From Peptococcaceae bacterium (lineage in GTDB: Bacteria > Bacillota > Dehalobacteriia > UBA4068 > UBA4997), in NCBI GenBank assembly GCA_022797295.1, contig JAAWKH010000006.1, positions 9,990 to 73,989 of the forward strand: a DNA stretch of 64,000 bases, read 5' to 3'. Each line of letters begins with the position of its first letter. Within the stretch, counting starts at the first letter, position 1. This document shows positions 1-3,000 of the stretch, in pieces. Position numbers: made by a program.

Positions 1-3000
1 CAGTCCTCTGCCTTTAATGGCAAGCGTTTGTATGGCTTCTTTATGAAATATTTGGCCCCGGTTTTCATTTTGATTGTGCTGTTAAGCTCTATAGCTAGTG
101 TGTTGGGTTGGATTTCAATGTAAAATTAAATCGACAAACTCAAAGCCGCTGCTTTAGCAGGGCTCAGAGTTTGTCGAAAAAAAAATAGACTTTTCCTTGT
201 TTTAGACGGAAAAATCTGCTATAATTAATTAACACTATTATATGTAAAGAAAGAAGTGAATAGTTTATGATGATACCTGGGATAAGCGGCCAGAATATAT
301 TTGGGCTGCAAATGCAAAATCAGATGCAAAGACCGATCGGCCAAGTGCAGGATTCTGGTTTGCAAAAAATAATTCAGCAAGTGAATGCAACTTATGGCAG
401 CAAGCGGAACTATGATACGATTGAACTAAGTCCTGAGCTATTGGATTTGCTAAATGCAAGCAAAAACGAAAAAACTGATGAAGCCGAAAAATCTGAAGCT
501 GCTTCAGGTTATCGTAAATACGCAGCGGAAATGTTTACCGAGGAACAATGGGCTGAAAACTCAATTTTGGAGCAACGGGATGGGATACAAACTGTATCTG
601 ATATTATTGACTATGCGAAATCCAAATTGGAGTACACAATGTCAAAAATGGAGGAGCTTGAAAACTATTTGAACGGCACAGGTGCGCATAGCGATCCCAA
701 TATGACAAAAGAGTTGGCTGAAACCTATTTACATAACTACAAGCAGAGTATTCAATCAGATTACACGGACATTATTAAAACTCATATCAAGCCACACCAG
801 GCCACCGTGGATGAATATGATGAATTGTCAGGCGGGCTGGCGTCAAAGGTGATGGGAAACCAGCTTAATTCTATTTCCGCTGAATCTTTGGGGCTTGCCG
901 ATTTGTCAGATGACCCCCAGGAGATTATGGCGGCGTTGGAAAACGCATCCAAGATACTGGACAGAATGAATCAGAAAGTTGAAGCTGCCTATGCTCAGAT
1001 GACTAATGGTAAACAGATTACCGAGCCTGCCAGAAGCACTTCAATCTTTAATGGTGAAACCAGTTTGGACTTCTTTGCCTCGCAGATGGAAAAATCGCAT
1101 AGACTTATAGATACTGCAAATATGAAATTTACTGGTCAAACATTTAGTTTCTGATAGAATAAGCAAAAAATTAGAATAAGCAAAAAGGCCCCGCCGAAGC
1201 GGGGTCTTTTTGCTTATTCCTCGGCGAATTGGTCCTTGTTTTGCGATAATATAACTTGGATATGGATACTATTTTGTTAAATTATAGGAAATATTTTGTC
1301 TTTTTTAGGTAAAAAATTGCAGGTAATTACAAAATAATAACGAATAGTTATCATATAATAATTATTTCATTTTTTGGGCATTTTCTGAATAGATATATTT
1401 CGGAGGTGCTAAAGTATGAAAAAAATTATTAAAGGAAAAAGGGTTTTCAAGGTTAAAAAGAGAGGGAAAAATATGAACGCAACATTAGAAAAACCGGAAA
1501 CATTAATTAATTATCTTAATAATGAAGATTTAATATTTATCAACGGAATGAAATCCTATATAAAAGAACTGAAAGCACTTCCGCCGGAAAAAGCTAAACA
1601 AGAAGCTGAAAAAGCTTTATTCCGTACTGGCGTAACTGATGAAAACGGTAAGGTAAAGGAAAATATTGTTTCCTGGGAGTGATTTTGTGTATAAAAAACT
1701 GCCTAATCTGGTTTTGGGTTTTCACGGTTGCGATAGAGAGGTTTTTGAAAAGGTTGTTTTTTACGGCGAACCTATGAGAATAAGCAATAACACATATGAT
1801 TGGCTTGGAAACGGTATATATTTCTGGGAACAAAATTATTTGCGGGCTTATGAATGGGCAGAAAAAAGCCCTAAAATCAAAGAGCCGGCCGTTATTGGTG
1901 CCGTAATTGATTTGGGCTATTGCTTAAATTTAACAGACAGCGCCAGCGCAGAAAAGCTACGGCTGGGCTATGAAATGTTAAAATTATATATTAAAGCCAC
2001 TGGAAAAGAAATGCCAGTAAATAAAAAATCTGAAAAAACGACAGATATTTTACTAAGAGATCTGGATTGTGCAGTAATACAGCAAATTCACGATTACAAC
2101 AAACAAAAGAAGATACCTGATTTTGATTCCGTAAGAGGCGTATTTACTGAGGGTGGGCCGGTATATCCCGAAGCCTGTTTTCAAGAAAAAACACATATAC
2201 AAATTTGTATTTGTAATCCTAACTGCATTAAAGGATATTTCAATCCTTTAACGCCAAATCCTGAATATGTTATGCCATAGAAGAACCGCTCCCAATAATT
2301 TAGGAGCGGTTCCCTTTTGCTTATTCCTCGGCAAATTGGTCCTTGCCAACGCCACACAACGGGCATTCAAAATCGGCTGGTAAATCCTCAAATTTGGTGC
2401 CGGGGGCAATGCCGTGCTCCGGGTCGCCCAGGGCTTCGTCGTAAACCCAGCCGCAAACTTCACAAACGTATTTTTTCATAGCTGCAATCTTCCTTTCGTT
2501 TAATTTATATTACAGGCCGCAATCAGTACGGCAATCTGCATCAAATTGGTCGTCGTGCACGCTGGCATAGAAGCGATAGCCACCAGCGAAATTAAAGCAA
2601 TCAAAGCCGTTTTGCTGCAAAATGCGGCAGGCAATGTAGCTGCGGATACCGGTTTGGCACATCACGTAAACCGGCTTGCCGGCCGGCAGTTCCGCCAGGC
2701 GTTCCCGCAGGCTGTCCAGCGGCAGGTTCAGCTTAAAATCCGCCGCGTGGCCGCGGCTGTATTCCGCCTGCGTGCGCACGTCCAGCAGGGTGACGCTGCC
2801 ATCCTTGGGCAGGTTGGCAATATCCTCATAAAAGAAGTGCTTCACTTTGCCGGTGATGACATTTTCCGCCACAAAGCCCAGCATATTCACCGGGTCCTTA
2901 GCGGATGAATAGGGCGGCGCATAGGCCAAATCCAGCTCTTTAAGCGCGCGCACGCCAAGGCCGGCCTGCATAGCGGTGGCGATAACGTCTAGCCGCTTGT

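Follow-up and report, generated by a model that had tools for sequence, protein, structure and literature searches.

A rubredoxin gene on the minus strand near the left end of the DNA analysed here, a 64,000-nt stretch of contig JAAWKH010000006.1 from a Peptococcaceae bacterium (the window, whose positions serve as coordinates throughout), is followed by a compact cassette that separates it from a second copy of its own 3′ end. The cassette comprises a promoter-like sequence, a small partner gene, a gene for a protein of 197 amino acids (aa) and a terminator-like hairpin. Beyond it, the duplicated gene end adjoins a palindromic terminator and a gene for a conserved hypothetical protein of 295 aa (Table 1). 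This last gene belongs to the host, since it has 70–80% identical homologues in Oscillospiraceae and is present in strains lacking the cassette; several of its homologues come from named Oscillospiraceae or Oscillibacter. Its absence from the related genome L001 had suggested that it might be part of the insert, an idea that we rejected because the gene adjoins rubredoxin in contigs with an empty site (L229, L239, L240 and L244–L247).

Table 1. Features of the rubredoxin locus and its inserted cassette, in window coordinates
Feature	Position	Strand	Evidence and remarks
Conserved hypothetical host gene, 295 aa, left flank	267-1154	+	203 homologues, many at 70-80% identity
Ancestral bidirectional terminator: palindrome, 21-bp arms, 4-nt loop	1174-1219		Inverted-repeat search and folding
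Distal, orphan 31-mer: last 25 nt of rubredoxin including the stop codon, plus 6 nt of 3′ flank	1208-1238	-	Still joined to the ancestral terminator
Inserted segment, 1,076 bp	1239-2314	+	33.3% GC; absent from L229, six other conspecific contigs and L001
Sigma-70-like promoter match upstream of the partner gene	1326-1354	+	Consensus scan only, 9/12 positions; putative function
Small partner gene, 88 aa from the first ATG (second ATG at 1473 possible)	1416-1682	+	Sequence reading
Probable ADP-ribosyltransferase-fold protein, 197 aa, GTG start	1687-2280	+	Weak profile and structure matches
Terminator-like hairpin of the cassette	2283-2312		-18.7 kcal/mol (+), z = -4.2; -23.9 kcal/mol (-), z = -5.8; within the insert
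Proximal, functional 31-mer, completes rubredoxin	2315-2345	-	TTT allele in all occupied strains
Rubredoxin gene, insertion target, intact	2321-2479	-	Pfam Rubredoxin, E = 3.9e-25; NCBIfam RubredRD equivalog, 93.6 bits vs cutoff 90

A search allowing up to three mismatches identified the two copies of the gene end as a 31-nt direct repeat with one mismatch, and under the same conditions the window held no further copy and shuffled sequences held none at all. In minus-strand orientation each copy contains AAG GAC CAA TT(C/T) GCC GAG GAA TAA, the KDQFAEE* end of rubredoxin, and the sole difference between them is a synonymous Phe codon (TTC/TTT). An earlier note on this DNA had described the duplication, including the stop codon, and had placed a terminator hairpin next to each copy. 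Both observations hold, with the proximal copy lying exactly where it had been placed and the distal one a single base to the right of the 1207-1237 given there. The hairpin of the cassette now also stands behind the rubredoxin stop codon. The ancestral palindrome folds with –36 kcal/mol on the plus strand (z = –7.6) and –34 kcal/mol on the minus strand (z about –7.5 for the two), and its outer right arm is formed by the first 12 nt of the duplicated 31-mer. With only two copies in 64 kb and none in the shuffles, we rejected a genome-wide repeat family, which the note had named as a possible refutation, or a chance match as the source of the repeat; the 31-mer and both ends of the insert were likewise absent from 2.9 million viral contigs. 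A dif/Xer-like site was also rejected, as inspection by eye revealed no dyad symmetry within the 31-mer.

The uninterrupted form of the locus is preserved in L229, a conspecific contig with about 99% identity to the window. Positions 1104-2340 of L229 align with window 1-1238 and positions 2310-7256 with window 2315-7260, and the two alignments overlap by exactly 31 nt; a single 31-mer is found between the palindromic terminator and the body of rubredoxin, with nothing intervening. The insert therefore consists of 1,076 bp (1239-2314) accompanied by a 31-bp target duplication. The earlier note had proposed a cassette insertion with target duplication and a comparison with related genomes for a clean empty site. 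That comparison supported the proposal, yielding six empty conspecific strains beyond L229 (L239, L240, L244–L247), all with the order 295-aa gene, palindromic terminator, one 31-mer and rubredoxin, and four further occupied ones. The closest species-level genome, L001 (88–90% nucleotide identity), is also empty: its rubredoxin gene and a convergent gene for a sodium-dependent (SNF-family) transporter are 83 bp apart, the 295-aa gene is missing, and the core of the intervening terminator matches the terminator beside the distal copy in the window. L002 was dropped as a second comparator, having no rubredoxin gene downstream. At 33.3%, the GC content of the insert is below the 50% of the window as a whole and the 58% of the genes for rubredoxin and CoA-disulfide reductase, which argues for a foreign origin, and nothing similar to it was found elsewhere in the window, where it is single-copy. 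Taken together, a foreign cassette was inserted 25 nt upstream of the rubredoxin stop codon and duplicated 31 bp, and the rubredoxin gene was preserved.

The ancestral rubredoxin terminator has peculiarities of its own. The 21-bp arms of its unusually long palindrome (GAATAAGCAAAAAGGCCCCGC / GCGGGGTCTTTTTGCTTATTC, region 1153-1219) are preceded by a tandem duplication of 17 nt (GATAGAATAAGCAAAAA / ATTAGAATAAGCAAAAA), and three additional occurrences of the rubredoxin stop region GAATAAGCAAAAA, in direct or inverted orientation, lie within 1153-1219. The palindrome is unchanged in L229, and only the GC core of the hairpin is found in L001. Because both the palindrome and the 17-nt duplication are present at the empty site of L229, they are older than the cassette.

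Occupied alleles were recovered from the window, L238, L241, L242, L243 and L081. All have identical junctions and a repeat spacing of 1107 bp, indicating a single insertion event. The orphan copy carries TTC in the window, L238 and L081, shows an AAG to AAA change in L241 and L243, and is identical to the functional copy in L242, where the 31-bp repeat is perfect. Empty sites are themselves polymorphic (TTT or TTC). The mismatch in the window is thus uninformative with regard to mechanism, and we rejected it as a clue to a crossover within an attachment site. Exactly this rubredoxin protein abounds in public assemblies, where 1,912 collection blocks list it, and about 13 of the 23 longest contigs encoding it are occupied and about 10 empty, a count for which 10 contigs were inspected directly and the other 13 were assigned the state of the representative of their group. 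The host is an abundant, Oscillospiraceae-like gut species that carries both alleles.

Among five occupied strains the cassette differs at 0–3 of its 1,076 positions and the flanks at up to 14–15 of 1,850, and this lower diversity indicates a cassette younger than its host species. Neither flank groups the occupied strains as monophyletic; the flanks of occupied L243, for example, show 4 differences from the empty L239 and L246 and 14 from the window. These relationships demonstrate that the occupied allele has come to reside on several flank haplotypes by recombination or loss within the species. A separate polymorphism was seen at positions 1-600 of L238–L247, past the DUF1706 gene, where some strains carry a Cupin_2 plus AraC pair and others an open reading frame (ORF) of 127 aa. 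Its lack of coupling to the cassette 2.5 kb away indicates frequent recombination.

The mixture of empty and occupied alleles across haplotypes would also be expected if occupancy were ancestral and the empty strains had arisen by precise deletion between the repeats, a loss rather than a gain, which direct repeats are known to promote. We regard this as very improbable: the related species represented by L001 is empty, the cassette is compositionally foreign, and a deletion would still call for an earlier insertion that made the repeats. Somewhat less remote, yet still quite unlikely, is a Campbell-type event, in which a circular cassette already bearing the 31-bp rubredoxin end was integrated by homologous recombination, with the repeats as the homology segment; the junction of such a circle would read ...GGAGCGGTTCCC + 31-mer + TTTTGCGATAAT.... 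A length of 31 bp is near the minimum reported for RecA-dependent recombination, and the spread of a nearly invariant cassette over several flank haplotypes shows that recombinational transfer within the species is real. Such transfer between strains, however, is more simply achieved through the kilobases of homology in the flanks, neither a circular form nor a tandem copy was seen, and the model leaves unexplained how a foreign cassette of 33% GC first acquired a host-specific 31-mer.

We then considered the products of the cassette. The homologue-supported GTG start of the second gene at 1687 lies behind the stop codon of the partner at 1682, so that the two genes, which the earlier note had taken to overlap, are separated by 4 nt, and the last codons of the partner (...TGG GAG TGA) provide the ribosome-binding site of the 197-aa gene. 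Neither product matched a Pfam family above threshold. At E ≤ 10, hmmscan returned for the 197/204-aa product only PARP (E = 3e-3, 17 bits vs a cutoff of 26.7) and one spurious match, and for the 88-aa partner nothing except one spurious match; among 40 homologues of the partner, none matched DUF3791 at E ≤ 0.1, nor did any of them match DUF3990 or another Pfam family above threshold. Membership in the DUF3791/DUF3990 pair, as suggested in the note, is therefore not borne out, since neither family was matched at E ≤ 10, and the relationship would at most be one of a superfamily shared with DUF3990. Scans of Pfam, NCBIfam, PADLOC and phrog profiles revealed no recombinase or transposase domain in either product. 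The 177-nt leader was examined for a structured RNA, an idea that we rejected because Rfam gave only sub-threshold matches driven by the terminator.

Three individually weak but concordant matches suggest that the 197-aa protein probably adopts an ADP-ribosyltransferase (ART) fold. Besides the PARP profile, the protein matched PADLOC PD-T4-9_A (E = 8e-6; a partial match, covering residues 9-63 for the best model), and its AlphaFold model (predicted local distance difference test, pLDDT, 72; predicted template modelling score, pTM, 0.66) retrieved PARP catalytic domains as all of the top 28 Foldseek matches in the PDB, albeit weakly (best probability 0.94, E ≥ 5e-3, template modelling score 0.31–0.40). 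Foldseek matches in BFVD were polyvalent and ART-PolyVal-like proteins with E values from 3e-4 (best) to 2e-2. A full-length match to phrog_14664 (E = 5e-20) adds a family with no assigned function, and a profile search of PDB sequences with alignment A1 gave nothing significant. H13 (FHGC), Y45 (GIYFWE), E155 and E167 are invariant in 28 homologues and may correspond to the catalytic His, Tyr and Glu of ART domains of the H-Y-E type. In this sense only, of a probable ART fold, can the product be called toxin-like, as the note had considered.

The protein is also rich in conserved cysteines. C15, C79, C174 and C180 are invariant in alignment A1, C174 and C180 as part of the motif C-x-C-N-P-N-C, and C102 and C128 are nearly so. 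This pattern is unusual for ART domains, and the model is least confident in the C-terminal segment that includes the motif. The cysteines may form a metal site.

A total of 7,631 homologues of the 197-aa protein was found at E ≤ 0.001, most of them 196–198 aa long and unannotated. The ART-like gene has a small ORF directly upstream in most of 130 loci compared across Bacillota, Bacteroidota-like loci and Pseudomonadota plasmids; these partners measure 47–110 aa and have a variable N-terminus and a shared C-terminal motif G-[IV]-x(3,4)-G. In Clostridia the module is located on conjugative elements, beside VirB4/TraG-like, TrbL and MobL genes. Further copies reside on 50 viral contigs, on prophages, on 67 Pseudomonadota plasmids, of which roughly half are conjugative, and at plain chromosomal sites. 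The recurrence of partner and ART-like gene on mobile DNA indicates that the pair is a conserved functional unit that travels on such DNA. Two pairs from conjugative plasmids, both annotated only as hypothetical proteins and both next to tra or par genes, are found at about 46% identity in L232 (Rhizobium johnstonii pRL8, 2810-3603, beside traH/traB/traF/traA) and L233 (P. syringae plasmid PP2, 2828-3606). IS110-family transposase genes occur a few hundred bases downstream of the module in L213 (4776-5921), L221 (4776-5921) and L233 (4309-5343), that is, in a Clostridia conjugative element and a Pseudomonas syringae plasmid, and the terminator region of the module may be a preferred IS110 target.

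The layout of two adjacent genes, conserved as a pair with the small one upstream, matches that of type II toxin-antitoxin systems. The most likely role of the module would be in toxin-antitoxin-like action or conflict, and the family is a candidate for a new toxin-antitoxin, defence or anti-defence system; our literature searches, which were aimed at other topics, returned no publication on it. Several known systems share some of its features. PD-T4-9 is CmdTAC (PMC9519451), whose CmdT component ADP-ribosylates mRNA (PMC11618068). CmdTAC and DarTG-type ART toxin systems resemble the module in being small operons on mobile DNA with an ART-type fold in the larger product. CmdTAC, however, has three components, whereas here only two genes and no SecB-like chaperone are present and the weak match is to component A alone; in contrast to DarTG-type systems there is no macrodomain partner, the partner being from an unannotated family. 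The Pfam ART clan includes DUF3990 (PMC7955679), and the DUF3990/DUF3791 pair has the same two-gene layout with a small partner; a common superfamily is plausible despite the absence of a direct Pfam match. The ART-PolyVal domains, which gave the best viral structural matches and likewise occur on conjugative elements and phages, are embedded in proteins of about 1,000 aa or more, whereas the protein described here is free-standing and has a small partner.

A distinct arrangement is seen in Bacteroidota-like relatives (about 51–53% identity), where the module is one cassette among several in 29 loci with ≥90% identical ART genes. On human-gut Bacteroidota-like contigs (L118–L158) the other cassettes are Abi-like and AAA-ATPase-like, and the upstream neighbours vary widely. 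In front of each cassette stands a conserved hairpin plus promoter-like segment in the same orientation (TTTTTATCTTCC.CACTCTCAAACATTTTCC...TAnnTTTG), found for instance in L134 at 667, 1660, 3665, 4669 and 5459 and in L140 at 3549-3666 and 4643-4761. Cassette arrays split by a repeat of this kind are reminiscent of integrons and of the rAID-1 arrays of Bacteroidales, whose repetitive intergenic sequences have been compared with those of integrons (bioRxiv 10.1101/471110). Array-like repeats were confined to these distant relatives. Unlike them, the window has a single cassette and a repeat derived from a host gene end, with no recombinase or array.

Flanking duplications are not confined to the rubredoxin locus. 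After reduction of the 130 loci to 64 independent ART lineages, tight flanking direct repeats were present in 10, compared with none of 75 neighbouring ORFs of similar size that served as controls (Fisher p = 2.8e-4); among random placements, 4 of 201 had such repeats. The repeats lie immediately outside the two genes, are unrelated in sequence and 29–119 bp long (for example 31, 33, 58, about 70 and about 120 bp), and most include or adjoin a strong hairpin or represent the 3′ end of an adjacent gene. Repeat-to-repeat distances cluster at 0.9–1.1 kb, a range shared by at least nine independent loci whose repeats are unrelated. A second, independent insertion is that of L090, a Lachnospiraceae-like contig with a module 61% identical to that of the window, in which a 959-bp insert is bordered by a 58-bp duplication of the pdxA 3′ end (3651-3708 and 4668-4725). 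Here, too, empty sites are available: in four conspecific contigs (L234–L237), pdxA is directly followed by a DUF4869 gene. The native PdxA C-terminus (...RQRVR) is kept on the orphan copy, and the functional copy ends in ...RQRE, encoded by the insert. For L094, a search of viral contigs for empty sites gave no exact matches, and an empty-site comparison in Pseudomonas syringae plasmids was dropped because the region is too mosaic. Homeology between cassette and host terminators at the boundary (7/12 identities in the window, 6/12 in L090) was considered as a guide for the junction and rejected as a general feature, since the mean over 11 loci was 3.2/12 on both sides.

Such duplications could be true target-site duplications left by staggered cuts, if the cassette were a non-autonomous transposable element mobilised by a transposase or integrase encoded elsewhere. 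As in a transposon insertion, the empty site holds one copy of the duplicated sequence; the site is clean, the junctions are sharp, the 31-bp duplication is perfect in L242, and flanking duplications are specific to the module. We nevertheless consider this explanation unlikely. The insert (1239-2314) encodes no transposase and has no terminal inverted repeats, the non-coding ends of related modules differ, with no conserved ends among them, and the element is single-copy in the window. Bacterial transposons make target duplications of roughly 2–15 bp. The one described here is much longer than those of known transposons, and the wide variation among loci (31, 33, 58 and about 70 bp) is unlike the product of a fixed-stagger enzyme. 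Phage morons, which are self-contained units of promoter, gene or genes and terminator with foreign composition inserted between resident phage genes, are organised like the cassette. They are defined in phage genomes, however, and to our knowledge they are not described as having a long target duplication.

Duplication of a gene 3′ end with preservation of the gene is otherwise the classic signature of site-specific integration, and cis-mobilizable elements (CIMEs), integrase-less remnants flanked by attL and attR, are defined in this way (PMC5704250). The cassette could accordingly be what is left of a prophage or of a conjugative or mobilisable element whose integrase targeted the 3′ end of rubredoxin. 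This element would have brought its own copy of the gene end, the 31-bp repeats being attL and attR, and would have lost all genes except an addictive two-gene module. The absence of a recombinase, the direct repeats of the target gene end and the intact target gene agree with a CIME, members of the module family are often borne by conjugative elements and prophages, and in L189 the two repeat copies are 88% identical, both with frame and stop codon retained. What speaks against decay is the compactness of the insert, which consists wholly of a promoter region, two genes and a hairpin with no pseudogene debris of a larger element, and the recurrence of this unit at 0.9–1.1 kb spacing, not expected from random decay, between unrelated repeats of differing length. 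The repeats of unrelated hosts (rubredoxin, pdxA) would each require a different dedicated integrase, and no cognate element was found: viral contigs lacked the 31-mer and the insert ends, and none of the 23 longest contigs (10 inspected directly) had a second or integrase-bearing element at the rubredoxin site. On balance this origin is improbable.

The account that we favour, and rate as somewhat more likely than not, is a non-autonomous, illegitimate insertion of a foreign operon, followed by spread within the species. An AT-rich, self-contained operon of promoter region, partner, ART-fold gene and hairpin would have entered the chromosome of one lineage. One 31-bp copy completes rubredoxin beside the hairpin of the cassette, and the other is left as an orphan on the ancestral palindromic terminator. 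The module would be placed by illegitimate recombination leaving long, variable staggered joints, for instance when nicks lying far apart are filled in or when replication switches template at terminators that form hairpins. We favour this route because the duplications of host sequence differ in length from one independent event to another and are associated with terminators; a fixed-stagger transposase or a dedicated attachment site would fit less well. Homology of the flanks, and possibly the direct repeats, would afterwards enable the cassette to spread among strains of the species and to be lost from them precisely. The ART-fold protein would have a nucleic acid or a protein as the target of its modification and be restrained by the translationally coupled small protein, and a toxin-antitoxin-like function of this kind would also explain the persistence of the module as a lone insert. 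A more far-reaching version, which we put forward only as a doubtful possibility, is that the module represents a new kind of minimal mobile cassette that inserts at gene 3′ ends and terminator hairpins with duplications of about 30–120 bp. Having no transposase or integrase of its own, it might, on the same speculative footing, be driven by host replication and repair at hairpins or by the proteins of the module.

Several points weigh against the favoured account. Every step beyond the insertion with its 31-bp duplication is one that we infer, and a recombinase may act in trans from outside the 64-kb window. No flanking repeat was detectable in 54 of the 64 lineages, including the chromosomal loci L223 and L224, so the duplications may be limited to particular routes of insertion, or to recent events. 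The control genes have long been resident, and flanking repeats may be enriched around recently acquired cassettes in general, not around the module in particular. The repeats in the Bacteroidota-like loci are probably inter-cassette array repeats of a different, recombinase-driven system. As to function, the ART assignment combines three individually weak matches with a model of moderate confidence, and the 63–73% identity among the 120 closest of thousands of homologues is unusually high conservation for a toxin.

Other differences between the genomes were noted to the right of the locus. About 36 kb of the window (4882-41005) is replaced by 39 bp in L001, whose positions 5227-5266 join the homologues of window 41006 and 4881; this is a difference between species, since at least the first 2.4 kb of the segment is present in the conspecific L229. 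A HicA-like toxin (63 aa) and a HicB-like antitoxin (133 aa) are encoded at window 5579-6176, their L229 counterparts matching Pfam HicA_toxin and HicB_lk_antitox. The DUF1706 gene is intact in the window (181 aa, 4344-4889), split into fragments of 129 and 64 aa in L229 (4342-4885) and truncated to 95 aa in L245; its fragmentation is due to either a frameshift or an assembly error.

The rubredoxin locus provides an unusually clean natural experiment, with occupied and empty alleles in one abundant gut species, junctions defined to the base and a cassette that lacks a recombinase. In addition, it reveals a two-gene family that is very large and lacks annotation, and whose larger protein is probably an ADP-ribosyltransferase. 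The kinds of element involved, ART toxin-like modules and integrase-less elements flanked by direct repeats, are known ones, and there is a modest chance that the locus points to an undescribed route of cassette insertion. If the recurrent long and variable duplications share one mechanism, this would help to explain how small accessory operons enter chromosomes at gene ends without disrupting the genes.

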